NCBI GenBank assembly: GCA_026387455.1
Contig: JAPLLR010000017.1
Coordinates: 5,635-69,634 of the forward strand
Reading direction: 5' to 3'
Origin: Candidatus Omnitrophota bacterium
GTDB taxonomy: Bacteria > Omnitrophota > Gorgyraeia > Gygaellales > Profunditerraquicolaceae
Length of the DNA stretch: 64,000 nt
Part shown: positions 41,501 through 56,991 of the stretch, in pieces
How positions within the stretch are numbered: the stretch's first letter is position 1
Layout: every line of letters starts with the position of its first letter
Translations under genes and position numbers: made by a program
Notes under the pieces: generated by a model
What the model saw: only the letters and a program-made list of their open reading frames with translations
What the model was told of the DNA's origin: nothing
Database searches by the model: none

Positions 41501-41502
41501 GA

Positions 41503-42610
41503 TTATCCTTTGATTTCAGCGCTCAATCTTAAAAACGCTTCGATGAATTCATCTATCCCGCCATCCAGCACCTTTGCGGTATCTCCAGTCTCAATATCAG
41601 TGCGATGGTCCTTGGCCAGGTTGTAAGGATGCAATACATAAGAGCGTATCTGGCTGCCCCATTCGATCTTTTTCTTCTCTACGCCGTATTGCTTTAATAA
41701 TTCCTTCTCCTTTTTCTCCTGCTCAAATTCAAACAGGCGCCCCTTTAAAATCTTTAAAGCGGTTTGCTTGTTCTGATGCTGCGAGCGCTCATTCTGACAC
41801 TGCGCCACTATACCCGTCGGAATATGGGTGATGCGCACTGCGGAATCCGTGGTGTTGACGCTCTGGCCGCCTGCGCCCTTGGAACGGTATACATCTATGC
41901 GTAGATCTTTCTCTTCTATTTCTATGTCCGCATCTTCAGTGATCTCCGGGATCACATCCACCGAAGCAAAAGATGTGTGCCTGCGCTTGTTGGAATCAAA
42001 GGGGGAGATACGCACCAGCCGGTGCACACCCCGCTCCGCTTTCAAATATCCGTAGGCGTATTCACCCTCGATGAGAATAGTAGCGTTCTTGATTCCCGCC
42101 TCTTCTCCGGGAAGCATATCAATGGATTTGACCTCGTAGCCATGGCGCTGTGCCCAGCGGTTATACATGCGAAAGAGCATGCTTACCCAATCGCAGGATT
42201 CCGTGCCTCCGGCTCCGGCATTTACACTTAAAATCGCGCTGTTGCGGTCAAACTGTCCACCCAATAAACTCTTAAACTCCAGCCTCTCCGTCTCCTGGGT
42301 GAGAATAGCTAGATTACGGTTTAGTTCCGCAGCTAATTCTGTTTCAAGGGGGGTGGTGATACCGGAGAGCTCATGCAATTCCTGATATTTGTTGCGAGCA
42401 ACCTCCCATAGCTCAACGCTGGACTTAAGACTCTTAAGCTCTCTTACTACCTTGGTAGATTGCTCGGAATTATCCCAGAATCCGGCCACAGACATCTGCG
42501 CGGAAAGTTCGGCAATGAGTTTCTTTTTGGCATCGATGTCAAAGATACCCCCTGAGCTGCTGGAGCCGAATATCGATCAATGCGAGTTTCGATTGGATAT
42601 CCTCTAACAT
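41503..42610 (-). CDS. prfB: Peptide chain release factor 2, with the programmed +1 ribosomal frameshift. Frame 0 runs 42610-42539 and the main frame runs from 42540 onward.
   Basis: Hand translation of frame 0 gives MLEDIQSKLALIDIRLQQLRGYL, then the in-frame TGA within AGGGGG TAT CTT TGA C. This is the classical SD-like element plus CUU UGA C shift site. Downstream frame contains SPF and GGQ (GGQSVN) motifs. Confidence 0.85.
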
Positions 42611-42662
42611 AAATTTTCCTTTGCCCTTCCTTTATAGGTACAGGAAGGCCTGCCCTTGTGGG

Positions 42663-43736
42663 CTAAGCTCTGCGAATTCCTTTTAAGGTCAACACAAACT
42701 CATCGCGGTTATCGGCAAAATTCCCAGCCTCTTCTTCGCTGATCTTGCCTGCTTTGACCAGTTTAACCAAGGACTGGTCAAATGAACACATCCCGAACAG
42801 CTCGCCATCCTCGATATACTGCTGCATATCCTGAACCTTACCCTCGCGGATCAGACGGCTGATAGTAGGAGTCAAAAGCATAGACTCATAAGCTGGCACT
42901 CTTCCGTTTGCATTGTGCGCCGGGACCAGACGCAAAGATATGACCCCTTTTAAAATAGTGGCCAGCTGATTCCTGGTCTCCTGATGTTGATGCGGCGGGA
43001 AGAAATTAATGATCCTCTCTACACTTTGGCTAGCGTTGACGGTATGCAGAGTGCTCAAAACCAGTACCCCGGTCTCCGCAGCGGTGATCGCCGCCTGCAT
43101 GGTATCATAATCACGGATATTCCCGATGAAAATAACATCCGGACTTTGAAGCGTAAATGCTTTTAAGGCAGCCGCATAGGACTGCACATCCAGGCCCAAT
43201 TCGCGCTGATTGATCAGGGATTTATTATCCTTAAAAGTGAATTCAATGGGCTCTTCGACGGTAAGAATATGTTTATTGCAATTGCTATTAATATATTCAA
43301 TCATGCTGGCGATTGTGGTAGACTTGCCGCTGCCCATAGTGCCGGTCAGCAAAACCAGGCCTCTTTTTTCCAGGGAGAGCTTTTTTAGCACGTCCGCCGG
43401 CAACATCAGGTCCTCAAAGTTCTGAACTACGTTTTGTATGCTCCTGATGACAATGGAAGGCCAGTTGCGCTGCATGAAAATGCTTATCCTGAACCTGCGG
43501 TCAAGACCTTCAAAGTAATAGGCAAAGTCAATATCCATATTCTCTTTAAAGAGAGCGCGCTGTCTGGGGTTCATCAGCTCTTCGGTGGCCGCCATCACGT
43601 CGTCGACGCTTAAGACAATATCCGACATCTGCACCACCTGGCCGTCTATCCTTAAACGCGGGGTGCCGCCGGCGCGAAAGAAAAGGTCTGAAGCGCTCTT
43701 TGCCACCATCTCTTTAAGCAAATCTTTGATTTTCAT
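42663..43736 (-). CDS. pilT: Type IV pilus retraction ATPase PilT.
   Basis: 357 aa; Walker A GTMGSGKST; PilT-type N-terminus and Asp/His boxes. Confidence 0.75.
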   Translation of the reverse strand: MKIKDLLKEMVAKSASDLFFRAGGTPRLRIDGQVVQMSDIVLSVDDVMAATEELMNPRQRALFKENMDIDFAYYFEGLDRRFRISIFMQRNWPSIVIRSIQNVVQNFEDLMLPADVLKKLSLEKRGLVLLTGTMGSGKSTTIASMIEYINSNCNKHILTVEEPIEFTFKDNKSLINQRELGLDVQSYAAALKAFTLQSPDVIFIGNIRDYDTMQAAITAAETGVLVLSTLHTVNASQSVERIINFFPPHQHQETRNQLATILKGVISLRLVPAHNANGRVPAYESMLLTPTISRLIREGKVQDMQQYIEDGELFGMCSFDQSLVKLVKAGKISEEEAGNFADNRDEFVLTLKGIRRA

Positions 43737-43789
43737 AATGTCCTCCGCTTATATCCTAATATCCGGGAAAAAACACAATTGAATATGTA

Positions 43790-44074
43790 TTATATCACTA
43801 ATCTTGCCGTCAGGAACTCTTTTATTTTCCGCTCCCGGCTCAAAAGCAAAACCTTCTTCTTTACCCCAAAGACATAGCCTCCCAAATCGTTACCGCACTT
43901 TACTACCCGGTGGCAGGGGATAATAACCGGCCAAGGATTCTTGTTTAAAATATTCCCCACTGCGCGGTAAGCATTAGGCCTGCCGGATTTCTTAGCCACC
44001 CACTTGTAGCTACGCGTTTCGCCTAACGGAATCGTTGAAACAACCCGAAAAACTCTTCTGGCAAACTCTGTCAT
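43790..44074 (-). CDS. MGMT-family (methylated-DNA-protein-cysteine methyltransferase DNA-binding domain) protein.
   Basis: 94 aa with PCHRVV active-site-type motif. Confidence 0.6.
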   Translation of the reverse strand: MTEFARRVFRVVSTIPLGETRSYKWVAKKSGRPNAYRAVGNILNKNPWPVIIPCHRVVKCGNDLGGYVFGVKKKVLLLSRERKIKEFLTARLVI

Positions 44075-44101
44075 TGGTTTATTTCGTTACCAACCTAATA
44101 A

Positions 44102-45334
44102 TTACCTGCCTATCACTTTCTTGCGATGCAATAAGTGATGATACGCCTGAGCGAATCGATGCGCCTCATCGCGCACCCGGCGGATGAGATTTAACGCAGG
44201 AGTATCAGATTTCAATTGTATGGGATTAACTTTACCCAGCAGATAAATATTTTCTTCTTCTTTGGCGATACTGGCTAAAGGTATAGGCAAACCAAAATCC
44301 AAAAGCACTTTCGCCGCGGTCATCAAATGTCCTTTGCCCCCGTCAATAAGGATAAGATCAGGCTTGGGCAGCTTTTGCTCAATAACCCGGGCATAACGCC
44401 TTCTCACCACTTCCTGCATCATGGCGTAATCATCGATTGCGTTGACCGCCTTAATTTTAAAACGGCGATAATTATTTTTATCCGGTTTGCCCTTGTGAAA
44501 ACTGACCATCGACCCCGTCGCCTCTTTGCCACAGATATTAGCGATATCAAAACATTCAATACGCTCCGGAATCTTCGACAGCTTCAATAAATTTTTCAGA
44601 TCCTGCATCTCATCGCTACTGCTGAATCCCGGGCGTATCGAGGAAAGCGCGCTTATGGCGCTGATCTGATCGCGCGCTGCCGCAGCCTGCTCAAATTCTT
44701 TATTTTCGGAAAACCGCTTCATTTCAATACTCAGCTTATTAATAAGAGTGTCAGTCTTACCTTCCAGAATTAAACTAATATTCTCAATAGCTAAAGCGTA
44801 ATCTTTTTTACTGATCTTGCCGATACACGGGCCTGGACATAAATTCACCCGGTAATAAAGACAAGCCTTGTCCGGCAGATTCCTGCAGGAGCGTATGGGA
44901 AAACTGCGGCGGATTATCTTTAACGCCTCGCGTAAAAGATTCGCGCTGGTGTAAGGCCCAAGATACCTGCTACCATCATCTTCTTTCTTACGTGTAACAT
45001 AAATCGCAGGAAAATCTTCCTTGGTGATCTTGATCAAAGGAAAGCTTTTGTCATCCCGAAGCGAAATGTTATATTTCGGCATATGCTTATGGATGAGCGC
45101 AGCTTCTAGCAGAAGAGCCAAAGCTTCAGTCGGACACAACTGAACCTGGATATCCGCGACACTGCGCATCTGAATCAGCGTCTTAGTCGCCAGGTCCCTG
45201 CCCAGATAAGTCATCAGCCGCTTTCTTAGCGACTTAGCCTTGCCCACATAAATTATCTTGCCGGCAGAGTCCTTCATTAAATACACGCCCGGCGAATCCG
45301 GCATCTTGGCTATTTTTTCTCGTAAACTGCTCAT
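44102..45334 (-). CDS. uvrC: Short UvrC-type excinuclease subunit: GIY-YIG, UVR and RNase-H-like endonuclease domains, but no C-terminal (HhH)2 domain.
   Basis: 410 aa. GVYLMKD...IYVGKAKSLRKR GIY-YIG motif; EFEQAAAARDQI UVR motif. It ends about 190 aa short of canonical UvrC. Confidence 0.6.
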   Translation of the reverse strand: MSSLREKIAKMPDSPGVYLMKDSAGKIIYVGKAKSLRKRLMTYLGRDLATKTLIQMRSVADIQVQLCPTEALALLLEAALIHKHMPKYNISLRDDKSFPLIKITKEDFPAIYVTRKKEDDGSRYLGPYTSANLLREALKIIRRSFPIRSCRNLPDKACLYYRVNLCPGPCIGKISKKDYALAIENISLILEGKTDTLINKLSIEMKRFSENKEFEQAAAARDQISAISALSSIRPGFSSSDEMQDLKNLLKLSKIPERIECFDIANICGKEATGSMVSFHKGKPDKNNYRRFKIKAVNAIDDYAMMQEVVRRRYARVIEQKLPKPDLILIDGGKGHLMTAAKVLLDFGLPIPLASIAKEEENIYLLGKVNPIQLKSDTPALNLIRRVRDEAHRFAQAYHHLLHRKKVIGR

Positions 45335-45384
45335 AATCTACTATTAACTGTCCCTGACTATGCTTTCACTAAACACTAACTTAT

Positions 45385-45700
45385 GCTATTGTTTAGCGGG
45401 TCCTGCCTTGGCTTGTCCTGCGCGCGGCTTATCGCCGTGCTCGGATCAAACCAAGTCACCCGCTAAACTTACTATTAACTTGCGATCTCGCCAGGTGCAT
45501 TTCTTCATCTGACGGGAGGCTTGGCTTGGTTTCGAGCGGGGCGTCCGAGGAACCGAGCGGGCATGGCGGGCGCCATGCCCGCCTTCGGCGTGCAGACGAG
45601 GTCCGCAGGCCGAGCGAAGTTTTGCCTCGCAGGGGCAAAACAAGCGCCCCCGCGAAAACCAAGACAAGCCCACCCGCCACGAAGCGGAGCGCTCAGTGTT
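45385..45700 (+). repeat. GC-rich modular structured repeat element, copy 1 (module 1 is a long hairpin of about 85 nt; module 2 is a stem-closed multi-hairpin domain of about 170 nt).
   Basis: Local GC is far above the genome average. gtttagcgggt...acccgctaaac closes module 1. ggcttggcttggttt...aaaccaagacaagccc closes module 2. Internal perfect palindromes include gggcatggcgGGcgccatgccc and gttttgcc-tcgcagg-ggcaaaac. Confidence 0.6.
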
Positions 45701-47240
45701 ACCTTTTGCGCCCAGTCACCCAATTCCAAAGCTCCCGCACTTCCGAAACTCCAAAAATAAAACAGAACAAAGCGTACACCGCCACGCCGGCAAAAGTCTC
45801 TAATCCCAGCAGGGCAAATTTATTCATTCCGGCGAGATTGCGCGAAATCAGATAGCACACGCCACCCATACATAAACTCGCCATAAATATACGCACGCAA
45901 GAAATTATAACCTGTTTGTTACCAAAATCTCCGATCTTCTTCTCCAGAAGTACGAACAACACAAAAAACGATATTATCCCGGAGACGGAAGTCGCCAAAG
46001 CAATACCTGCGATCTTAAGAGGAAACATAAGGCTCGCGCAAAAAACAATATTCATAATCAAAGCCAGCGCTGAAACCTTAGTAGGCGTAACCGTATCTTT
46101 AAGCGAAAAAAAACAGGATTGCAGGATACGCGTTCCCCCGTATGCGAATAAGCCCACGCTATAAAAAAACAATGCGCTGGCAGTAAGCCGGGCAGAGTAA
46201 GCGTCAAACTTTCCTCCCCCGAAAAGCGTAGTCACTATGGGATTGCTCAAAACCATAAACGCTACTGTTGCCGGAATCATTACAAAAAACGTGGCGCGCA
46301 GGCCCCAGGAAAGCGTATGTTTTAAATTTGCGTGATTATCTTCCAGCGCCTGGGTCGAGAATGTCGGCAGTATTGCCTGGGAGAGTGCGGTGCTGAAAAG
46401 GCCCAGAGGAAACTGGATCAGCCGATAAGAAAAATATAAAACCGCTACACCACCGTCGCCTACGATAAAAGCCAATGAACCAAAAATAGAATCAACAAAA
46501 TTATTCAGCTGATAAATGCTGGTGCTTAAGACCCGCGGTAGCATCAGCTTACCAATAGTCCTGGCCCCGGGATGATTAAAAGTCTTAGGGATTTTAAAAC
46601 GGAAACCCTTTTGATACAAAACAGGCACCTGTACCGCCAACTGCAAAACCCCGCCCACTAAAACGCCTAATGCCAATCCCTTTATTCCCTCTCCAAACAA
46701 AAGCGCAAAGACAATAATAGAAATATTTAAAAGACAGGGCGCGAATGCCGGGGCGGCAAAATGCTTAAGGGAGTTCAGGATCCCCATACAATAAGCGGCG
46801 AGGCTGATCAAGAGGATATAGGGAAAGATATAGCGGTTAAGCTCAACCGTAGCCCAGAACTTATCCGGCGACTCCACAAATCCCGGAGCGATCAGACGCA
46901 CGATAACCGGAGAGAAAATCACACCCAAAAGAGTAATCAGGGAAAGCACCACCAAGAGCAGATTAAGCACTACATTAGCCAGCTCCCAAAACTCTTCCTT
47001 AGTGCGCCTATGCTGATATTCGCTGAACACCGGGACAAAAGCGGCGTTGGTCGCACCTTCGCCCACAAAATCGCGCAAAAGATTGGGAATACGAAAAGCA
47101 ATGACAAAAGCCTGAGCTATGGTGTAAACTCCGAAAAGCCGGGCAATGACCACATCCCGGATAAATCCGAGGATTCGCGAGATAAGGGTGGCAAAACTGA
47201 TAAGGGTGGCGGATCTGGCTACGGATTTGTTTGTTGACAT
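45699..47240 (-). CDS. murJ: Lipid II flippase MurJ (MOP superfamily).
   Basis: 513 aa. N-terminus ...LISRILGFIRDVVIARLFG and 14-TM layout typical of MurJ/MviN. Confidence 0.75.
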   Translation of the reverse strand: MSTNKSVARSATLISFATLISRILGFIRDVVIARLFGVYTIAQAFVIAFRIPNLLRDFVGEGATNAAFVPVFSEYQHRRTKEEFWELANVVLNLLLVVLSLITLLGVIFSPVIVRLIAPGFVESPDKFWATVELNRYIFPYILLISLAAYCMGILNSLKHFAAPAFAPCLLNISIIVFALLFGEGIKGLALGVLVGGVLQLAVQVPVLYQKGFRFKIPKTFNHPGARTIGKLMLPRVLSTSIYQLNNFVDSIFGSLAFIVGDGGVAVLYFSYRLIQFPLGLFSTALSQAILPTFSTQALEDNHANLKHTLSWGLRATFFVMIPATVAFMVLSNPIVTTLFGGGKFDAYSARLTASALFFYSVGLFAYGGTRILQSCFFSLKDTVTPTKVSALALIMNIVFCASLMFPLKIAGIALATSVSGIISFFVLFVLLEKKIGDFGNKQVIISCVRIFMASLCMGGVCYLISRNLAGMNKFALLGLETFAGVAVYALFCFIFGVSEVRELWNWVTGRKR

Positions 47241-47312
47241 AGGGGGTTAATTATGGTAACTTATGAAACATAAATCGCCAGAAGGAAAATCTGGCTCATT
47301 AAGGAGTCTATT

Positions 47313-47576
47313 ATGCCAAGACGCAGAACATCAATCAAAAAGACCCGCGCAGACAATAAAAAGCATTTGCGCAACTACAAAATCAAACAGCAGCTGAAAA
47401 AAACTATCAAGAAATTCCAGCAACTAACCAGCGCCAAAAAGCTGGATGAAGCCAAAGCCCTACTTCAGAAGGCATTCTCAGAATTGGATAAGGCAGCAAA
47501 AAAGCAGGTCATCCATCCGGCTACAGCAAACCGCAAAAAATCCCGCTTAGCCAAGCAGCTATCTAAGCCCGCATAG
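47313..47576 (+). CDS. rpsT: 30S ribosomal protein S20.
   Basis: 87 aa; MPRRRTSIKKTRADNKKHLRNYKIK...NRKKSRLAKQ. Confidence 0.85.
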   Translation: MPRRRTSIKKTRADNKKHLRNYKIKQQLKKTIKKFQQLTSAKKLDEAKALLQKAFSELDKAAKKQVIHPATANRKKSRLAKQLSKPA

Positions 47577-48197
47577 ACTGATCACCAGCTTCTCAAGAGC
47601 AAATAAAGGCTTAAGTTTTCCTGTTTTAATGTCGATATCGCATGCAAGCAGGTACTTAAGCCTTTTTCTTTTCTCAAGAGGATGTGCGGCATTCTTCTCC
47701 CAGACATAACGCAAACCACCGAGAATACGCTCCGGCCTCTCCCCATCCTTTAAAAGCCCGCTTAATATGCGCAAGGCGCTGTCCGCCCTCTTCAAATCTA
47801 TTGAGCGGCCCAAAGCAAAAGTATCCTGATGCACTGTTTCCTTAAAACGCACCGGCTTGACAAAACGGGCAATATTCTTGATAAAACTATCCGTCTTGTC
47901 CAAGTGGTTTAAATCCATAGCCAAGACCACCTGCGGATAAGGCTTCCTGACGTATTTTTCCAGAAATTCTTTAACCTCATCTTTCAAGTCTTCGATGTTT
48001 TTTATAATAATCAGTCTCTTGGGATTCTTTACTGGAAGGGATAAAAGCTTTTCCTGCAGCGCTTTTTGGGTCAGCTCACGAGCATAGAGAGTATCGAGGT
48101 TGAATTGTTCGGTGCCTTTGGAGAGGACGTAATCTTTAAGTTTCTTAAGCTGGATGTCTTTGGCAAGATTATCGCTGCCGATAAAAAGATAAATCAT
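47559..48197 (-). CDS. holA: DNA polymerase III delta subunit (HolA), short form.
   Basis: N-terminus MIYLFIGSDNLAKD... resembles the delta N-terminus. It sits downstream of lptE, the same order as leuS-lptE-holA in E. coli. It is only 212 aa. Confidence 0.45.
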   Translation of the reverse strand: MIYLFIGSDNLAKDIQLKKLKDYVLSKGTEQFNLDTLYARELTQKALQEKLLSLPVKNPKRLIIIKNIEDLKDEVKEFLEKYVRKPYPQVVLAMDLNHLDKTDSFIKNIARFVKPVRFKETVHQDTFALGRSIDLKRADSALRILSGLLKDGERPERILGGLRYVWEKNAAHPLEKRKRLKYLLACDIDIKTGKLKPLFALEKLVISLCGLR

Positions 48198-48200
48198 TAT

Positions 48201-48755
48201 CTACCACTGTTCAACAGTGCGTTCGACTACTCGTCGGGCTAGATCAATTATGGAATTCTGCACTGCCTGATCCTCGCTTATCGCCTGAGTGCCGGTGACA
48301 AAATAGCTGGTCTCTCCAGTAAACCCGGGCTCGCTCCAAAGCAGCTTCTTTTCCGGTCCCGTTTTATCCCACATCTCTAGGTTCACCACAATATTCACCC
48401 GGTACTCGGTAACATCGTCGCTGTTATCGGCATAACGCAGGGGGTCTTTGCGGAATTGCACCAGCTGGCCGACCAAGATCATATCCGCCGAAGCCTCTTT
48501 AACCGGTTTGAGGTTGCCATCAAATAAATAGCGGTTGCTCACTGCCTTGGTCACCTCAGTCTCAGTAAGCGGCCGGTTAAGCTGGTATTTATCTCCGGAG
48601 TCGCCTTCTCTGGTGATGTCGATGGTATTGACGAACGGAGTAATATAAATAGTCTTATACTGATCGGAGATCATGGAGCGGGTAGTGTAACCGCAGCTAC
48701 TAAGCCCGAGAACAAAAGAACTTAAGAACACAAGAGCCAAAATTCTCTTCATCAT
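48201..48755 (-). CDS. lptE: LptE-like LPS-assembly lipoprotein.
   Basis: Lipobox LGLSSCGY. 184 aa. Positioned just upstream of holA. Confidence 0.45.
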   Translation of the reverse strand: MMKRILALVFLSSFVLGLSSCGYTTRSMISDQYKTIYITPFVNTIDITREGDSGDKYQLNRPLTETEVTKAVSNRYLFDGNLKPVKEASADMILVGQLVQFRKDPLRYADNSDDVTEYRVNIVVNLEMWDKTGPEKKLLWSEPGFTGETSYFVTGTQAISEDQAVQNSIIDLARRVVERTVEQW

Positions 48756-49705
48756 TTCTTCTTCTCCAATTTCTCAAGGAGCGGCAATTTATCCTGCGCC
48801 TTTTTTGCCCACGGGCTTTCGGGATATTTCTCTATGACAGCATTATAATAAATACGAGCCGCAGGATATGCTTTTTGCTTCTCATAGAAAACCGCGATGT
48901 TGTAGCTACTGGCCGCCTCTTTTTCCTTTAACTTATCGATATTCTCCTCTGCCTCCCGGGAAAGCACGGCATCCGGATGGTCCTTGAGGAAATCTTCGAA
49001 TTTCTGCTTAGCCTCGTTAGCTGCTCCAGAATCATAATCCGGCCCACGGGACAAGGCTGCGCGGCAGGAGGCGATCTGGAACTTGGCCGGCTCTACCCAC
49101 TCGCTCTCCGGATAATTGGTAACTACCTTATTAAAAGCCTCTTCCGCCTCATCAAAACGCACTAGACCTTTTAATACCAAACCAAGCTTATACTGTGCCT
49201 TCGGCGCTATCGGGCCGTAGGTGGAATTTTCAACCACCTTGGTGAATATCTCTATGGAGGGATTCTCAACGGGAAGCGGAACGCCCAGGGCTTTACGCTT
49301 CTCCCCGGACATGAATATTTCTCCGATCTTATACTCCCGCTCGATAATCTCCTTAATCCTTTCGGAAAAAGGATACTTATCCACCACCTTCTGGTAAGCA
49401 AGGAAAGCTTCATAGAGATTGTTCTTTTCTTCTTCAGAGCGGCCCATGTAATATTGGCTTTCAGAAGCCTCGTAGGACTTAGGGTAAGCCTTGAGAAGTT
49501 TCTTAAACTCACGGATTGCATCATCGTATTTTTTAAGATTATAGAACTCTATGGCATAGTCATATTGCTCCTTAGGGGTGGGTTTGACCATAGTCTTAGG
49601 GTTCACCCACTTGCCAGTCTTGGGAGTCCAAATCCAGTAAGCATAAGCAGGGCTTACAGATACAGCCCAAATACAAGCTAAAATCAACAAAATCACTCTA
49701 CGCAT
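48752..49705 (-). CDS. Exported TPR-repeat protein, BamD(YfiO)-like.
   Basis: Signal peptide; TPR-like helical repeats (YYMGRSEEEKNNLYEAFLAYQKVVDKYP...). Confidence 0.4.
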   Translation of the reverse strand: MRRVILLILACIWAVSVSPAYAYWIWTPKTGKWVNPKTMVKPTPKEQYDYAIEFYNLKKYDDAIREFKKLLKAYPKSYEASESQYYMGRSEEEKNNLYEAFLAYQKVVDKYPFSERIKEIIEREYKIGEIFMSGEKRKALGVPLPVENPSIEIFTKVVENSTYGPIAPKAQYKLGLVLKGLVRFDEAEEAFNKVVTNYPESEWVEPAKFQIASCRAALSRGPDYDSGAANEAKQKFEDFLKDHPDAVLSREAEENIDKLKEKEAASSYNIAVFYEKQKAYPAARIYYNAVIEKYPESPWAKKAQDKLPLLEKLEKKK

Positions 49706-49754
49706 AATAGTAAAATGGTAGCATAGGGGCTCGGCTTTGTCAATTCAAATAGGC

Positions 49755-50070
49755 GACATGGCATAGCGTCTGCCTCATGGCGGGTGGGCTTGTCTTGTTT
49801 CTCGCAGGGACGTTTGTTTTGCCCCGGCGTGGCAAAACTGCACTCATTTCCAGCCCCTCGCTCTCGCTTGATATGTGATAGCGGGCGAACCATGCCCGCT
49901 CGGGGCTTTCATGCCCTGCTCGAAACCAAGCCAAGCCTCCCGCCAGCTGAAGAGATTCGCTTGATAATTTATAATGGCCGATAGGTTTAGCGGGTGACTT
50001 GGCTTGATCCGAGCACGGCCATAAGCCGCGCGCAGGACAAGCCAAGGCAGGACCCGCTAAACAATAGCAC
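49755..50070 (-). repeat. GC-rich modular structured repeat element, copy 2, inverted relative to copy 1.
   Basis: The reverse complement of 49981-50070 matches 45385-45470 almost base-for-base. The reverse complement of 49790-49920 matches module 2, with covarying changes (gttttgcc-acgccgg-ggcaaaac). Confidence 0.6.
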
Positions 50071-50095
50071 TTAGTGGAAAAATAACCAAGGGCAA

Positions 50096-51502
50096 CTAAA
50101 TATTGAAGGAGGCGCCGGGGAGGGCACTTAAGAAAAGGTTCATCCTGACCAAAAGAGTAACTGCCAGTTCGCTAGTAGAAGCAAAATAGGGAGCAACCGG
50201 AGGCAGTATTAACCCGGAAAAAACCAGACATATACCGCACAGGGTAATAAAGGTAGCCAAAGGCACGATAAATATATTCGCCAAAATAGTAACCGGCGAA
50301 ACTAGTTTAAAATAATAGGCGATAAAGCCGCTGGTGCCCAGCCACGCAGAAAGAGAGACCACGCCTCCTTCGGCCAGAAACCTAAGGGATTTGATTTTTA
50401 AATCATCCAACCTAAAAAGTGTTTTAAGCCGGGGATACAGGTAAATAATGGATATAACGCTGGCAAAAGAAAGCTGAAACCCGATATTAAACAGCTGACC
50501 GGGGTCGATAAGCAGAATAAATAGAGCAGCCAGACTTAAGGAGTTATAAATATCCGGCTCCCGCCTTATAAGATACGCCACTAAAAAGAAGATACCCATT
50601 ACTGTTGCCCGGACCACCGGATTAGATGCCCCGGTCAACAGACAATAGATGATCAAACACGGGATAATTATGACAAAGCGCGCCTTGCGCGGTACGCGGA
50701 TAAGCTTTAGAAATAGCGCGACTATAAAAATTATTATTCCCACATTAAAACCACTGACAACCAGGATATGCACGGTGCCGGCTTTTACCATAGAGTCATA
50801 TATGATCCGGGGAATGTCTTTTTTCTCTCCCAGCACCATCGCCTCCAACACACTTGCGGGTAACTTCGGAACATAAAAGGAGATTATTTTCTGCATCTTA
50901 GATTTCAACCAGAAAGCAAATCCTTTCAAGGAAAAACCACGAGTTTTTTGAAAACTAACTGCCAGATCCTGCGACTCCACACGCATAATGCAATATATTC
51001 CCTGCTGCAATAAATAATTCTTTTTTTGCTGCTGAAAGCTGGGCACCGGATACATATAACCCTTAAGTATCAGCCCCTGACCGTAATACAAGCCGCTGCC
51101 TCGAGCCACCTGTACCTTTATCTTACCGCTGGAGCGGTAACTTAATTTTCCAAAATGTAATTCCCTTATATTGAAAATAAAAACCGTTTCCTCACCGCTC
51201 TTTTCCGGAACACTTACGATATTGCCTTTAACGCTATAAAATTTCTCACTTTTATAATAAACAAAATTAGAGACATGGGACTGTGGCAAAACCTGTGAAT
51301 TAATCAAGATCAGCGCGCCGGATAAAGCGAAAATCACCAGAAGGATAACCGTGGATACTAAAACCTTACCAATAAAGAATATACAGAAAACCAAAAACAT
51401 AACCGCAATGGAAAGAATAATCCAGAAATTCATCACGATTGAATTTGCCAGGATTATTCCGATGCATAGAGATACAGTTACCCAGACAAGCGGCCGTAAC
51501 AT
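50096..51502 (-). CDS. comEC: ComEC/Rec2-family DNA-uptake channel protein (membrane domains only; no C-terminal metallo-beta-lactamase domain).
   Basis: 468 aa polytopic protein with the ComEC competence-domain layout. It is adjacent to comEA. Confidence 0.55.
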   Translation of the reverse strand: MLRPLVWVTVSLCIGIILANSIVMNFWIILSIAVMFLVFCIFFIGKVLVSTVILLVIFALSGALILINSQVLPQSHVSNFVYYKSEKFYSVKGNIVSVPEKSGEETVFIFNIRELHFGKLSYRSSGKIKVQVARGSGLYYGQGLILKGYMYPVPSFQQQKKNYLLQQGIYCIMRVESQDLAVSFQKTRGFSLKGFAFWLKSKMQKIISFYVPKLPASVLEAMVLGEKKDIPRIIYDSMVKAGTVHILVVSGFNVGIIIFIVALFLKLIRVPRKARFVIIIPCLIIYCLLTGASNPVVRATVMGIFFLVAYLIRREPDIYNSLSLAALFILLIDPGQLFNIGFQLSFASVISIIYLYPRLKTLFRLDDLKIKSLRFLAEGGVVSLSAWLGTSGFIAYYFKLVSPVTILANIFIVPLATFITLCGICLVFSGLILPPVAPYFASTSELAVTLLVRMNLFLSALPGASFNI

Positions 51503-51831
51503 CAGCGCACCACCAGGTAATTCTTTATTTTATCGAACTTGCCGGCGGTTAGGCCTTTGATTTCCTTGATCTGCTCAATATCGCTTAGGCCGGCCAACTC
51601 ATTTCTAAGCGCGATGATCCGCTGAGCCAGCTTTTCTCCTATACCCGGAACGCTCTTAAGCGTATCCTTATCCGCGGAATTCAAGTCAACCTTGCCAAAA
51701 TCACTCTCTAGCCGCGCAATACGCTCTACCGGAACAAATACCTTTGCCGCATAGCTCACCCCCACACCCATCAAAACCACAGCCAACAGAAAAATTAGAA
51801 CTTTACGCTCTTCCGTAGTCAAGTTTGACAT
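51502..51831 (-). CDS. comEA: ComEA DNA-binding competence protein (helix-hairpin-helix).
   Basis: 109 aa: N-terminal anchor plus DLNSADKDTLKSVPGIGEKLAQRII (HhH)2 motif. Confidence 0.7.
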   Translation of the reverse strand: MSNLTTEERKVLIFLLAVVLMGVGVSYAAKVFVPVERIARLESDFGKVDLNSADKDTLKSVPGIGEKLAQRIIALRNELAGLSDIEQIKEIKGLTAGKFDKIKNYLVVR

Positions 51832-51960
51832 AGTTCCACCTCCCTCTACTTATCCCTACAGTTGTACACTTCGGAAATTTCTTTGAAATTTCCTTGTAAC
51901 TGCAGGGATTAAGTTCGGGCATATAAGTTATGTCGTCCATCCATTGGACTCCATAACTTA

Positions 51961-52000
51961 CCCCACAGGGGTAGGCCTTCCCATCCTATAAAGGAAGAGC
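51961..52000. repeat. Intergenic copy of the hairpin element that is inserted in hcp.
   Basis: ccccacaggggtaggccttcc-catcctataa-aggaagagcc. Confidence 0.5.
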
Positions 52001-52070
52001 CTTATGCCCTCACTTAAATAGACGTAAAGGAAGGCAAAATCTAACAGAAAATCTTAGGATATTTGCGACT

Positions 52071-52220
52071 GGCTTAGTTTTGTTTTGAGTAGGGCATGGA
52101 AGCCCCGAGCGGGCATGGCGCACGCCTTTGGCGTGCAGGCGAGGGGCTGGAAATGAGTGCAGTTTTGTCACGCCGGGACAAAACAAACGCCCCTGCGAGA
52201 AACAAAACAAGACAGGCGCG
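52071..52220 (+). repeat. GC-rich structured repeat element, copy 3 (module 2 only).
   Basis: gggcatggaagccccgagcgggcatggcgcacgcc...gaggggctggaaatgagtgcagttttgtcacgccgggacaaaacaaacgcccctgcgagaaacaa. It aligns with copy 2 in reverse complement. Hairpin gttttgtc-acgccgg-gacaaaac carries a compensatory C-G to U-A change. Confidence 0.55.
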
Positions 52221-52224
52221 AAAA

Positions 52225-54624
52225 TTAAACTACGATGTTAACCAGCTTCTTGGGGACGATAACGAAATTGCGGATGGACTTACCCTCTATCCAGGGTTTA
52301 AGCCTCTCCTCGGAGAGGACTAATTCTTTCAACTTATCTTGCGCTATATCTGCGGGTACATCGAGCTTTGTACGCAGCTTTCCATTAACCTGCACGACGA
52401 TCGTTATCACATCTTCAACCAGCATCTTCGGATCAAACTCCGGCCACTTAGCTTTACATATACTTTCCTTATTTCCCAATATCTGCCACAGCTCCTCGGC
52501 AAAATGCGGCGCAATAGGACTGATCATCAATACCAGATTCGCAAATACTTCCTTATCCGCGCCTGATTGATAAATAGCATTGGTCAGCTCCATCAGGCTA
52601 GCGATAGCGGTATTAAACTTAAACTCCGCGTAGTCAACGCTTACCTTCTTAATAACCCTGTGCATGGTACGTAGCAAAACATCATCAGCCTTAGGTAAAA
52701 GGTTCTCCTGTACGCGCCAGACGCGGTTTAAAAACTTATTCGCGCCCTCAATACCGCGATCATCCCACTCCAGCTCGGTTTCAGGCGGCGCGGCAAACAA
52801 AATAAAAAGCCTTAATGTATCCGCTCCGTAATTCTTAATGATAGAGTCAGGGTCCACGATGTTGCCTCTAGATTTAGACATCACCTCCCCGTCTTTTAAA
52901 ACCATGCCCTGAGTAAGCAGGCGCTTAAATGGCTCCTTGAAATCGATCATTCCCAGATCCTGAAAGAACTTGGTAAAGAAACGCGAGTACAATAAATGCA
53001 GGATAGCATGCTCGATGCCTCCGATATACTGGTCCACCGGCATCCAGTACTTAGCGTCTAAAACATTAAAAGGGGCATTGTCGAGTTTTGGTGAGCAGAA
53101 ACGCAGGAAATACCAGGAAGAATCAAAGAATGTGGCCATGGTATCGGTTTCCCGACGAGCAGAACCAATACACTTGGGGCATTTTACCTCAACAAATTCC
53201 TTAACCTTACCTAAGGGACTCCCTCCTTCTCCGGTAATGGGCGCATCTTTAGGTAACTCCACCGGCAACTGAGCATAAGGCACAGGCACTATACCGCACT
53301 TTGAGCAATAAATAATGGGAATAGGCGTGCCCCAGTATCTCTGACGAGATATCAACCAATCGCGCAACCGCCAATGCGTCTGAATCTTGCCGATCTTGGT
53401 TTGCTCCATCCACTCAGCGATTTTTATTTTAGCTTCCTGATTAGTAAAGCCGTCGAATTGCGCGGAATTCACTTGAATACCATCGTCTTCAAAAGCCTCT
53501 ATCATCGCTTCGATAGTTGTTGGTCTATGGTCTATGGTCTGAATAACTATGCGCATCGGCAGCTCATGCTCTTTAGCGAACAAAAAGTCGCGCTGGTCAT
53601 GAGTCGGCACAGCCATAATCGCGCCAGTGCCGTATTCCATTAATACATAATCCGCGATCCAGATCGGGATGGTTTCATTGTTCACCGGATTAACCGCATA
53701 GCTTCCCGTGAACACCCCTTCTTTTTTAACATCCGAGGACGTCCGTACCACTTTGGTTTCCTTGGACACCTTCTCGATGAACTTCAGCGCCTCTTTTTCC
53801 TGAAGTCTACCCTTGATTAAATCTAAAACCTGCGGATGCTCCGGAGCCAAGACAATATAAGTGGCGCCAAATATAGTATCCGCGCGAGTAGTAAAAACCG
53901 GGATCACTGTCGCCAAATCTTTAAGCTTAAAGTATATCTCTACGCCTGAGCTTTTTCCGATCCAGTTATTCTGCATGCTGATGACCCGCTCAGGCCAATC
54001 ACCTAGCTGATTCAGATCCTCTAAAAGTCTTTCTTTATAATCAGTGATCTTCAGATACCATTGCTCAAGGTCTTTTTGTTCAACCTTAGTCTTACAGCGC
54101 CAACAACCACCCTCGATCACCTCTTCATTAGCCAACGTTGTTTCACAAGAAGAGCACCAGTTGACATCAGAACCCTTCTTATAGGCAAGCCCGCGCTCAT
54201 ACATCTTCAAAAAGATCCATTGGTTCCATTTATAGTAATCGCTGTCACAGGTAGAAACCTCGCGGCCCCAGTCATAAGAAAAACCCATGCGCTTAAGCTC
54301 CGCCTTCATCCAGTCAATGCACTTATGCGTCCAGATATCCGGCTTAGTGTTATTTTTAATGGCGGCGTTTTCCGCGGGCTGGCCAAAAGCGTCAAACCCC
54401 ATGGGATGCATCACCTGAAACCCCTGCATCAGCTTAAAACGCGCGGCCACATCGCCGATAGTATAATTACGAACATGGCCCATATGAATCTTGCCCGAAG
54501 GATACTGGAACATCTCCAGGAGATAATACTTCTTGCGCTCCTGGTCAGGTTGGACGGAGAAGATCTTCTTATCATGCCAAATTTTTTGCCATTTTTCTTC
54601 TATCTCTTTAAACGAATAACTCAT
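52225..54624 (-). CDS. leuS: Leucyl-tRNA synthetase.
   Basis: 799 aa; HMGHVRNY (HIGH) and KMSKS motifs; editing domain. Confidence 0.9.
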   Translation of the reverse strand: MSYSFKEIEEKWQKIWHDKKIFSVQPDQERKKYYLLEMFQYPSGKIHMGHVRNYTIGDVAARFKLMQGFQVMHPMGFDAFGQPAENAAIKNNTKPDIWTHKCIDWMKAELKRMGFSYDWGREVSTCDSDYYKWNQWIFLKMYERGLAYKKGSDVNWCSSCETTLANEEVIEGGCWRCKTKVEQKDLEQWYLKITDYKERLLEDLNQLGDWPERVISMQNNWIGKSSGVEIYFKLKDLATVIPVFTTRADTIFGATYIVLAPEHPQVLDLIKGRLQEKEALKFIEKVSKETKVVRTSSDVKKEGVFTGSYAVNPVNNETIPIWIADYVLMEYGTGAIMAVPTHDQRDFLFAKEHELPMRIVIQTIDHRPTTIEAMIEAFEDDGIQVNSAQFDGFTNQEAKIKIAEWMEQTKIGKIQTHWRLRDWLISRQRYWGTPIPIIYCSKCGIVPVPYAQLPVELPKDAPITGEGGSPLGKVKEFVEVKCPKCIGSARRETDTMATFFDSSWYFLRFCSPKLDNAPFNVLDAKYWMPVDQYIGGIEHAILHLLYSRFFTKFFQDLGMIDFKEPFKRLLTQGMVLKDGEVMSKSRGNIVDPDSIIKNYGADTLRLFILFAAPPETELEWDDRGIEGANKFLNRVWRVQENLLPKADDVLLRTMHRVIKKVSVDYAEFKFNTAIASLMELTNAIYQSGADKEVFANLVLMISPIAPHFAEELWQILGNKESICKAKWPEFDPKMLVEDVITIVVQVNGKLRTKLDVPADIAQDKLKELVLSEERLKPWIEGKSIRNFVIVPKKLVNIVV

Positions 54625-55019
54625 TCCTCATCCCATTTCTTACGTAAAGGCATCAGTGAAATCATGGTCTGCAGACCGCTTAGAATATGCTGGACATCTA
54701 CCGGCTTAGTCAAATAATGGTCTGCTTCCATATCATAACTTTTCTTGACTGCCTTTAGCTCAGTATTACCGCTAACAATGATCACCGGAATCCATTTGTC
54801 CCGGTTTTTGACACGGATTGCCTGAAGCACTTCAAAACCGCTTAGCTTAGGCATAATCAGATCCAAAATGACGATATCCGGATTTTCCGAATCTACTTTT
54901 TGCAGAGCCTCTTCTCCGTCATAAGCCTCGACTACTTCATAACCCTCGCGCAGCAGCAATTTCCTGTAGAAATCCATGCTCTGCTTTTCGTCATCCACCA
55001 CCAGGATCTTGTAGGCCAT
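54621..55019 (-). CDS. Single-domain response regulator (CheY-like receiver).
   Basis: ILVVDDE...phospho-acceptor D in ILDLIMP...KP motif; 132 aa. Confidence 0.65.
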   Translation of the reverse strand: MAYKILVVDDEKQSMDFYRKLLLREGYEVVEAYDGEEALQKVDSENPDIVILDLIMPKLSGFEVLQAIRVKNRDKWIPVIIVSGNTELKAVKKSYDMEADHYLTKPVDVQHILSGLQTMISLMPLRKKWDEE

Positions 55020-55033
55020 AAATGCCTTCCGCC

Positions 55034-55876
55034 TTAATTCTTAAGCTTCCTAACTAAAGCCAGATTTATTTTATCTGAATTTTCCGTTTCCTTAGGGGTC
55101 TCCAGGATCATCGGTATATTCCTTAATTTAGAATGGTTAATGATCCTTTTCATCCCACTCAGCCCAATATGACCCTTGCCAATATGGTCATGACGGTCAT
55201 GGTGCGAGCCCAGCTCTCCCTTAGCATCATTCAAATGGATAAGCTTAATCATGTCTGTGCCGCAAAGCTCTTCTATCTCATCCAGCATATCTTCAAGGCC
55301 GTCTTTGGTAGAGATGTCATAGCCGGCTAGATAAGCATGCGCCGTATCCAAACAAAGGCCGACGCGTTTTAAATCAATCATTGCGGCAAGCACCTCATTC
55401 TGGTGAATAAATTTGTAACCCAGCCAGGAGCCTGAGCCAGAGGTGTTTTCCAGCAGGATTCCGACTTTAGTATGCTTAGTTTTGTCCAGAATCCGGTTAA
55501 GTGCCTGGATCAGGCGCTTAACACCCGCTTCCTCCGAAGTCTCCTTATGACTACCCATGTGTGTTACGATATAATCGGCGTGCAGCAAATCTGCTTCCAG
55601 AATATCCTCTATATACGCCTCAATGGAAGCCCCATACAGCTTCGGATTAGGAGAAGCTAAGTTGATCAAGTACGGTATATGGATAAAGAACGGCTTAACT
55701 TTAAGCTTTTCCTGGCGCTTATTAAACTCCTCAATATCTTCAACCGCAAGCTGAGCATCCCGCCAGCGCTGGGGGCTGCGCGAGAAAATCTGCATAGTGT
55801 TACAGCCTAACTCCTTGGCTACAGTCAACGCCTGGTAGATCTTTCCCGCACCCGAAACATGCACCCCTAAGATCAT
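55034..55876 (-). CDS. nfo: Endonuclease IV (deoxyribonuclease IV, AP endonuclease).
   Basis: MILGVHVSGAGK start aligns with Nfo MKYIGAHVSAAGG. TIM-barrel His/Asp/Glu ligand pattern (HMGSH, LENTSG, HLNDAK). Confidence 0.75.
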   Translation of the reverse strand: MILGVHVSGAGKIYQALTVAKELGCNTMQIFSRSPQRWRDAQLAVEDIEEFNKRQEKLKVKPFFIHIPYLINLASPNPKLYGASIEAYIEDILEADLLHADYIVTHMGSHKETSEEAGVKRLIQALNRILDKTKHTKVGILLENTSGSGSWLGYKFIHQNEVLAAMIDLKRVGLCLDTAHAYLAGYDISTKDGLEDMLDEIEELCGTDMIKLIHLNDAKGELGSHHDRHDHIGKGHIGLSGMKRIINHSKLRNIPMILETPKETENSDKINLALVRKLKN

Positions 55877-55956
55877 AATAGTCAAGATTATACCGCAGTT
55901 AGAATTGACCGTCAAGCCATGTTGCCAACCAACGAATAATATGTTATGCTTATTTG

Positions 55957-56190
55957 TTGCGCTTTCTGCTACACCCAACTTTATAGCACCTTGGCATATA
56001 GGGTTGCCAAGTGCATCCCCTGCGGGATGGAAAAGTTGGTGTTACACTTTCTGCTTTACACCCGGCCTTAGCCCCTTCCTTAAAAGGTATAGGAAGGGCT
56101 ACCCCTCTGGGGTTATAGGATAGGCCGGTGTGCCGCTTTCTGCTACACCCAACTTTATAGGAAAAGTTGGTGTTCCGCTTTCTGCGTAAG
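55957..56190. repeat. Iteron-like array: four copies of c[ga]ctttctgc[t][a]acaccc, two of them arranged as an inverted pair (acacccaacttt/aaagttggtgt).
   Basis: Copies at about 55965, 56046, 56136 and 56175. It lies immediately upstream of the RBS of the RHH-like gene. Confidence 0.5.
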
Positions 56191-56200
56191 GAGGATTAAA

Positions 56201-56518
56201 ATGCTGCTGAGACAACAGGTGCTGATTGAAGACTGGCTAGTAGAATACTTAAAATTTCTGTCTGAAAAATACGATTTAAGCTATTCCGAAGTCATCAGGC
56301 TGGGATTATGCGCCCAATTCGATGAGATGATCACCTTGGCCTATCCCGACATCAAATCCAAGATAGATAAAAAGAAGTTCCTGCAATTACTGCATAAATC
56401 AGAGAATATCAAAGAATCGCGCGAAGAGCTATTAAAAGCGATTTCCGCGGTATATTTTGAAGCCCGCAAGACCATCGAAGCCCGCATGGCCAAAGAGAAA
56501 AAAGCAAAACACAGGTAA
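56201..56518 (+). CDS. Ribbon-helix-helix (CopG/Arc/MetJ-like) DNA-binding protein, 105 aa.
   Basis: Strong RBS TAAGGAGG. N-terminus QQVLIEDWLVEYLKFLSEKYDLSYSEVIRLGL fits the beta-strand plus two-helix RHH pattern. Confidence 0.45.
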   Translation: MLLRQQVLIEDWLVEYLKFLSEKYDLSYSEVIRLGLCAQFDEMITLAYPDIKSKIDKKKFLQLLHKSENIKESREELLKAISAVYFEARKTIEARMAKEKKAKHR

Positions 56519-56712: not shown

Positions 56713-56785
56713 GGGGCTGTAGCTCAGCTGGGAGAGCACCTGCATGGCATGCAGGGGGTCAGGGGTTCAAATCCCCTCAGCTCCA
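56713..56785 (+). tRNA. tRNA-Ala (anticodon GGC).
   Basis: Cloverleaf folded by hand. G3:U70 Ala identity pair; anticodon stem cctgc/gcagg; loop aUGGCAu; T-loop GGTTCAAAT. Confidence 0.85.
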
Positions 56786-56908: not shown

Positions 56909-56991
56909 GCCGAAGTGGTGGAATGGCATACACGTCGGTCTCAAAAACCGATGAGCGCAAGCTCGTAAGGGTTCAACTCCCTTCTTCGGCA
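56909..56991 (+). tRNA. tRNA-Leu (anticodon CAA), class II with a long variable arm.
   Basis: Acceptor gccgaag/cttcggc; D-stem gtg/cac; anticodon stem tcggt/accga with loop cUCAAaa; variable hairpin gagcg-caa-gctc; T-arm aaggg-TTCAACT-ccctt. Confidence 0.75.

Follow-up and report, generated by a model that had tools for sequence, protein, structure and literature searches.

Folded, non-coding interspersed repeats with a conserved core in Omnitrophota genomes

Three GC-rich, palindromic repeats stand between genes on contig JAPLLR010000017.1 of a Candidatus Omnitrophota bacterium (assembly GCA_026387455.1), and they raise the question of what kind of element they are: mobile DNA, a structured RNA, an mRNA hairpin, an inversion switch or a misread coding sequence. 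We analysed them in a window of 64,000 nucleotides (nt), which is the whole stretch of DNA under study (positions 5,635 to 69,634 of the contig). A first-pass annotation, made from the sequence alone, had placed two composite copies, A (forward) and B (reverse), on either side of a gene block from murJ to bamD, and a third copy, C (forward, module 2 only), farther along; a repeat search, blastn and a covariance model, R1, recovered all three there. Our preferred reading, which we hold with about even confidence, is that they belong to a large, non-coding, non-autonomous interspersed family whose unit is a folded single strand and which follows a logic like that of the REP/BIME/REPIN repeats. 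The family is apparently undescribed.

A strand-specific fold around a conserved core

Related copies were sought by scanning one genome per GTDB species with a pattern taken from the three window copies (CCGAGCGGGCATGG, a gap of 35-60, and AGTTTTG). The scan matched 38 loci, 31 of which were true copies by nhmmer and the covariance model, and the alignment of the genome set (A5, 41 copies) defines 54 pairs. Module 2, the element proper, is closed by P1, a stem of 30-40 bp with recurrent purine-purine mismatches and a CGAGC/GCGAG tandem-G.A step, which opens into a three-way junction. Arm 1 (Pa-P2-P3) carries P2, an invariant CCGAGC/GCGAGG helix with a tandem G.A, followed by an asymmetric loop, GGGCAYGG, and then by P3, a hairpin variable in both length and sequence. 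Arm 2 (P4-P5) ends in P5, which is capped by a near-invariant loop, CnCGCnGGG.

Covariation supports this fold. Standard pairs fill 85% of the cells in A5 compared to 33-47% in slid controls, and 40 of the 54 pairs have changed on both sides compared to 20-23 in the same controls; none of 500 shuffles reached the observed values. For the independent metagenome set introduced below, the alignment of which was fitted to the model, 88% of cells are paired (38-47% in slid controls) and the covariation score is 0.50 (0.05-0.08). The compensatory change that the first-pass annotation had seen between the window hairpins, GCC/GGC versus GTC/GAC (GTTTTGCC/GGCAAAAC in A and B, GTTTTGTC/GACAAAAC in C), is one instance of a pattern general to more than 120 copies. 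The minimum free energy was -162 kcal/mol for copy A (z = -7.4) and -148 kcal/mol for copy B (z = -5.5), and none of 100 dinucleotide shuffles folded as well. The proposal of a structure-selected, modular, non-coding repeat is supported.

It is the interior of the element that is conserved. The core consists of CCGAGC-GGGCAYGG ... GAGCGAGG and the CnCGCnGGG hairpin, and it lies inside a closing stem of free sequence: in distant members the P1 sequence is wholly different, AT-rich or GC-rich, and the pairing is kept. The motifs gAGcg, CnCGCnGGG and agCG are 92-100% conserved, even though the second arm was outside the search pattern. P5 also occurs as GGTGCGGC/GCCGCACC and as CCCCGAC/GGCGGGG. 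The termini are mostly TTAGCGG, CTGGCGGG or unrelated sequence, with GTAG found only sporadically (e.g., L012 and L013).

The fold is also strand-asymmetric, which speaks for a single specific strand. Tandem G.A steps and purine-purine mismatches are concentrated on one strand, with purine-purine mismatches outnumbering pyrimidine-pyrimidine ones (174 versus 77 and 239 versus 92), and the forward strand gave the better fold in 38 of the 41 copies, by 7.3 kcal/mol on average.

We note several further details of the fold. In the P5 loop, C-N1-CGC-N2-GGG (e.g., window 45627-45633), N1 and N2 covary (A/T 36, T/A 25 and G/T 8, versus A/A 2 and T/T 17), as would be expected if they close a CGC triloop as a pair or else make a tertiary contact. 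Pairing of the GGGCAYGG loop with the P5 loop in a pseudoknot was considered and rejected, as the Y does not covary with the loop positions. Within P3, some distant members (L058, L062, L069, L041 and L108) nest another GCCGAGCG...CAGCGAGGC unit, and an element can thus use the tandem-G.A CGAGC/GCGAG step as a building block up to four times. In high-GC members (L095, L060, L077 and L109; host GC 67-69%), either strand of the inner closing stem, AAAACCCG...CGGGTTTT, resembles a terminator, whereas the closing stem of the Omnitrophota type reads TTTC...GAAA.

Family extent, placement and turnover

Beyond the window, where the first-pass annotation had suggested looking, pattern scans together with the covariance model found more than 120 further copies of module 2 (~170 nt; unit 160-175 nt) in Omnitrophota-type metagenome-assembled genomes (MAGs) and metagenome contigs. 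The 31 true loci of the genome scan come from ~13 assemblies, nearly all of them Candidatus Omnitrophota or MAGs loosely labelled 'Planctomycetales', and one MAG, CAYHBB01, alone holds ~20 copies. Metagenome contigs were scanned with a looser pattern that constrained only one arm of the fold; R1 had at least 83 matches there, all in the 80 loci among the matches listed, which span 32-70% GC. Given this range, the family extends well beyond the lineage of the window. A weak covariance-model match (31 bits; L002 4972-5115, +) in a MAG labelled Candidatus Saccharibacteria stands apart from the chance pattern match that had selected that locus. One pattern match in a viral contig was rejected, since the covariance model gave it no support.

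Either orientation occurs among the copies, which are placed at the 3′ ends of genes. Where the flanking genes are co-directional, the copy is antisense to them in 44 cases and sense in 22; another 15 lie in convergent spacers and only 6 in divergent ones, and the 3′ end of the element is often 0-70 nt from a stop codon. Recurring neighbours, named by eye from their sequences, include MurC, GroEL, RecR, CysS, FolD, TpiA and ABC transporters. All-versus-all clustering of 711 flanking open reading frames (ORFs) for a protein partner returned housekeeping synteny only.

Near-identical copies occur at unrelated loci, copies are replaced or flipped at orthologous sites, and inverted doublets recur. 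Three composites of CAYHBB01 (L008, L021 and L024) are 98-99% identical to each other at unrelated loci of that one MAG, and window copy B is 96% identical to all three; the orthologous site of B in CAYHBB01 is occupied by a different subtype. CAYHBB01 is the closest relative found, being collinear with window positions 40237-56502 at 87-93% nucleotide identity. Its site A has no module 1; module 2 is there, reversed relative to copy A, together with 249 nt of other sequence. At its site B there are two inverted module-2 copies, of which the one at the position of B module 2 is of the different subtype. The subtype behind an 11-nt remnant beside window copy B (Table 1) is still complete at the orthologous site in CAYHBB01. 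Copy C has orthologues in CAYHBB01 (89%) and CAYGZJ01 (74%). Elsewhere, L005 and L008 have the whole composite in opposite orientations between collinear flanks, and inverted doublets are present in L004, L007, L025 and L031.

Four lineages, with MurJ identity as low as 72%, have an element in the murJ-uvrC spacer, the site of copy A, and both orientations occur. At L115 (4575-4752) this spacer measures 178 nt and the element 166 nt; the element starts 12 nt from the start codon of uvrC and reaches to within 2 nt of the murJ stop, so that neither a separate promoter nor an obvious ribosome-binding site would fit outside it. With the spacer being nearly all element, the reverse strand would be read through there if murJ and uvrC are co-transcribed. 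Where copy A abuts murJ in the window, the last six murJ codons differ from those of the relative (...WNWVTGRKR(stop) versus ...WNWVAKGKKT(stop); window 45699-45720 compared with L036 ~2310-2335), the rest of MurJ being 95% identical. Element turnover may have remodelled the MurJ C terminus.

The arms of module 1 are similar to an inverted P1 of module 2. Module 1 and the reverse complement of module 2 have GGCTTGTC(C/T)TG... and ...TGCTCG(GAT/AAAC)CAAGCC in common, and at the position of module 1 the relative has a complete inverted module 2. From the likeness of the arms to an inverted P1, we infer that module 1 is a core-less derivative, the decayed partner of an inverted doublet. The copies also break assemblies: 12 were observed at contig ends compared to 4.1 expected (P ~0.0006), and the only public contig with the exact MurJ protein ends inside copy A (L001).

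The three copies and their neighbourhood

The coordinates of the copies and their parts are listed in Table 1. By blastn and the repeat search, A and B are 78% identical over 320 nt in inverted orientation, and their module 1 stretches share 97% over 88 nt; B and C are 83% identical over 149 nt, and A and C 72% over 153 nt. Neither blastn nor R1 found a fourth copy in the 64-kb window. The first-pass figure of ~65% GC, in a window of 46.2% GC, holds for A (61-66% in 200-nt windows) and is too high for B (54-56%) and C (52-54%); module 2 alone has 68%, 60% and 57% GC in A, B and C, respectively. Its internal palindromes had been called perfect. The one in copy A, GGGCATGGCG-GG-CGCCATGCCC at 45559-45580, is present and near-perfect.

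Table 1. Positions of the repeat copies, their parts and the enclosed genes in the window
Feature	Position	Strand	Description and support
Copy A, composite	45384..45700	+	Module 1, linker, module 2 and short tail
Module 1 of A	45384..45471	+	~85-nt hairpin (GTTTAGCGGGTCC...ACCCGCTAAAC)
Module 2 of A	45509..45679	+	Three-way-junction element; covariance model R1, 136 bits, E = 5e-32
Core motif CCGAGCGGGCATGG of A	45553..45566	+	5′ strand of P2 with tandem G.A, and internal loop
P5 hairpin of A	45619..45641	+	GTTTTGCC-TCGCAGG-GGCAAAAC; conserved loop CnCGCnGGG
Copy B, composite	49755..50069	-	Same orientation as comEC and the bamD-like gene
Remnant GGCAGACGCTA beside B	49764..49774	-	3′-arm remnant of an older element subtype; alignment A4 with the relative
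Module 2 of B	49778..49946	-	R1, 166 bits
Module 1 of B	49982..50069	-	97% identical to module 1 of A
Copy C	52062..52221	+	Module 2 only; R1, 138 bits
Bracketed block	45699..49705	-	murJ, rpsT (+ strand), holA-like, lptE and BamD/YfiO-like; outside the element

In ascending coordinates, the genes by Pfam are uvrC, murJ, rpsT, a short holA-like gene, lptE, a BamD/YfiO-like TPR gene, comEC, comEA and leuS. The gene names of the first-pass annotation agree with Pfam, and its positions for the murJ stop (45699-45701) and the BamD/YfiO-like start (49705) proved accurate. Copy A fills the murJ-uvrC spacer and is antisense to both genes; copy C lies 4 nt from the leuS stop, antisense to leuS. The holA-like ORF (47559-48197, -) is only 212 amino acids (aa) long with weak delta-subunit Pfam matches, and it overlaps the convergent rpsT (47313-47576, +) by 18 nt at the 3′ ends. 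With 410 aa, the uvrC ORF is short as well.

At the 5′ edge of several composites (window 45364-45392; L024, L014 and L030; alignment A7), we noticed the sequence TTyCAC, 17 nt, TATTGT, which ends ~6 nt before the hairpin and is weakly promoter-like for the forward strand; its spacing has collapsed to ~7 nt in copy B, and the consensus promoter scan missed it. Between copy B and the BamD-like start (window 49743-49715, -) there is a good sigma-70-like site, TTGACA, 17 nt, TG-TACCAT, which is kept in the relative L004. In the spacer upstream of comEA, between comEA and copy C, there is a 16-nt inverted repeat, TAAGTTATGTCGTCCA / TGGACTCCATAACTTA (window 51924-51960). Farther away, the window holds two tRNA genes by Rfam (56713-56785 and 56909-56991, +) and a c-di-GMP-I-UAU riboswitch aptamer (RF03168; 61729-61805, -) at 67.7 bits, with a gathering score of 65.9.

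What kind of element the repeats may be

The comparison that fits the genomic behaviour best is with the REP, BIME and REPIN repeats of Proteobacteria, which are mobilised by RAYT, a Y1 HUH transposase. Like them, the family is extragenic and high-copy, sits at gene 3′ ends and in convergent spacers in both orientations, forms inverted doublets and mosaics, and has near-identical 'master' copies within a genome; related genomes occupy the same intergenic sites with different variants, and most copies have no adjacent transposase. By analogy, the conserved core would be a recognition structure for a factor encoded elsewhere, which would copy or re-insert the element with a preference for intergenic spacers that already hold a copy. 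Single-stranded DNA would be the likely substrate, module 1 would be a decayed inverted partner, and, where neighbouring operons read through a copy, either strand could form a large intercistronic hairpin. There are differences from REPs as well. REPs are lineage-specific, simple palindromes of 20-40 nt with a GTAG or CGTC tag, whereas the element described here has ~170 nt, 54 modelled pairs, one branch point and a core conserved across very different hosts; GTAG is no regular terminus, and no RAYT gene was found near any copy in the 0.99 Mb searched.

Several results weigh against a mobilised element. No transposase, recombinase or reverse transcriptase recurs beside the ~125 copies, whose neighbours are housekeeping genes, and a crude tblastn search of 0.99 Mb with an approximate IS200 TnpA query gave no match. 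Repeats in the flanks are no commoner than expected by chance (0 nt, 54; 1 nt, 26; 2 nt, 21; 3 nt, 2) and the element ends are poorly defined, these counts being weak because the stem-extension routine stopped at internal mismatches; at sharply bounded copies, no target-site duplication is visible. Clean empty sites were not demonstrated, and no presence/absence polymorphism was seen, since all three window sites are occupied in the relative too. In one orthologous comparison, the element is 81% conserved and the adjacent gene DNA 70%, and conservation at orthologous sites could reflect a host function rather than selfish spread. Moreover, a core conserved across hosts of 32-70% GC within a free closing stem is the pattern of a functional RNA, whereas in mobile DNA it is normally the termini that are conserved.

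Searches of known families returned nothing that matches. Rfam 15, queried with the window element and 35 related loci at gathering and permissive thresholds, gave no family, none of 20 divergent loci reached a gathering score, and the sub-threshold matches were scattered noise. Blastn against phage, plasmid and Escherichia coli collections, the last comprising 5,426 genomes and covering ERIC, REP and BIME, gave no match. No description was found in the literature by organism, repeat vocabulary or core sequence, Omnitrophota genome papers included, with a coverage too partial to prove novelty.

The likeness to BOX, RUP and ERIC that the first-pass annotation had remarked on stands for genomic behaviour and fails for membership. 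Correia (CREE) repeats of Neisseria, ERIC/IRU of Enterobacteria, and BOX and RUP of Streptococcus are likewise modular, imperfect palindromes of 100-300 nt co-transcribed with their neighbours. However, each of them occurs within one genus or family and has conserved terminal inverted repeats, to which Correia adds a TA duplication, whereas here the core and not the termini are conserved, and blastn found no sequence similarity between the family and the E. coli repeats, ERIC among them. Miniature transposable elements of the terminal-inverted-repeat type also differ: the P1 arms pair here, but their sequence changes completely around an invariant core, and no parent insertion sequence (IS) was seen.

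Three other comparisons concern folded strands and ornate RNAs. T- or Y-shaped hairpins of single-stranded DNA are read by HUH or tyrosine enzymes in the inverted terminal repeats of parvoviruses and adeno-associated virus, which hold GAGC repeats, in the bottom strand of integron attC sites and at IS200/IS605 ends. As a lead only, these share with the family a strand-specific folded strand and a three-way junction or extrahelical purines for recognition, as well as GAGC-type stem repeats; those systems are not known to make a target duplication, and none is visible at the sharply bounded copies here. In contrast to those systems, neither a cognate enzyme nor a cassette array, an integrase or a replicon context came to light here. 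The attC core sites RYYYAAC...GTTRRRY are not matched: module 1 has GTTTAGC...GCTAAAC, with one mismatch per box, but this near-match is not general across the family, and housekeeping genes flank the copies. HEARO/IscB and TnpB omega RNAs, the IS110 bridge RNA and group II intron domains resemble the family as ornate RNAs of 150-300 nt with several copies per genome. They adjoin their own protein gene, however, which is the case for 0 of the ~125 copies here, and again no Rfam family matches.

The strongest alternative, which we consider possible but less probable, is a new class of functional structured RNA, an RNP (ribonucleoprotein) scaffold or a self-processing RNA or ribozyme, transcribed from the forward strand and amplified in the manner of short interspersed elements to about one copy per 20 kb in Omnitrophota. 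A conserved core within a closing stem that varies yet always pairs, a three-way junction with invariant internal-loop nucleotides, tandem G.A modules repeated on one strand only, the GC range of the hosts and the lack of an Rfam counterpart would all suit such an RNA. However, the antisense position of two thirds of the copies in co-directional spacers and the flips at orthologous sites speak against it, as does the L115 spacer, which argues for read-through of the reverse strand there. A promoter scan showed no sigma-70-like preference for either side (best score 6.8/12 upstream of the forward strand versus 6.7/12 on the reverse side), and there is no terminator. The helices are ~95% Watson-Crick, with G-U no commoner than A-C (53 versus 77 and 96 versus 93), an unusual trait in an RNA family. 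Among the P3 loops, neither GNRA nor UNCG is enriched: the 19 tetraloops as folded include 2 GNRA and 0 UNCG, although in one subfamily 5 cUUCGg-like loops counted as C(TTC)G triloops.

We regard it as unlikely that the copies are simply host-beneficial mRNA hairpins, acting as intercistronic or 3′-untranslated-region stabilisers, RNase III sites or terminators, which would work in both orientations and need no mobilisation machinery. The position at gene 3′ ends close to stop codons, the depletion in divergent promoter regions, the occupation of the same spacers over long evolutionary distances and near-pure Watson-Crick helices that fold on either strand are what such hairpins would show. 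They would leave unexplained the invariant, strand-specific core motifs and the near-identical copies at unrelated loci. As for termination, Omnitrophota-type copies read 5′-UUU-hairpin-AAA-3′ on both strands, and, being U-rich before and A-rich after the hairpin in both orientations, they are therefore not canonical intrinsic terminators. Terminator-scan matches inside copies are short sub-stems, and some distant members do end in GCGGGUUUU. A generic hairpin role is possible in addition to the REP-like spread that we prefer.

The first-pass annotation had suggested that A and B could mediate inversion of the 4-kb murJ-rpsT-holA-lptE-bamD block; that they recombine to invert it as a programmed or frequent switch is very improbable. 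The two copies are indeed inverted and share an 88-nt stretch of near-identity, but that stretch is the only recombination-competent part of a pair whose overall identity is far lower. The idea is left unsupported because the syntenic relative keeps the block collinear, and the bracketing pair is peculiar to this lineage, as the copy at the relative's site A is flipped and lacks module 1. No invertase gene was found among the genes annotated around the copies, and inversion would set leading-strand essential genes against the direction implied by GC skew. The best explanation is that the inverted pair is an accident of mosaic history and not an inversion switch.

Finally, we can give hardly any credence to the suggestion that the repeats encode a small conserved peptide, LS[CW]FS[QR]GRLFCP: stop-free frames do occur on both strands and the peptide is common to A and B, but it is encoded opposite the conserved fold, its relaxed form LS.FS.GR.F appears in only 15 of 124 copies in any frame, substitutions are compensatory across helices, element lengths are spread evenly modulo 3 (15/17/9 and 29/18/22), and the 109-aa ORF over copy A has no Pfam match. 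Stop-free frames are expected from 60-68% GC alone; the first-pass annotation was right to treat the internal ORFs as artefacts of GC content, and the family is non-coding.

Taken together, the trait that sets this family apart is that its interior and not its ends is conserved, with textbook covariation, across hosts of very different base composition. This leaves two possibilities: a single-strand element of a new kind, mobilised in trans by an enzyme partner, or a new class of RNA. The latter, if true, would mean that a functional RNA has spread as an interspersed repeat, for which bacterial examples are rare. Because copies break short-read assemblies and give rise to spurious ORF calls, a covariance model would improve the annotation of such MAGs. 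Detailed work on interspersed structured repeats concerns a few cultured Proteobacteria and Firmicutes and not the small genomes of the host-dependent Omnitrophota. There, by extrapolation from three copies in 64 kb, the family may make up ~1% of the DNA, lodged in operon spacers between essential genes.

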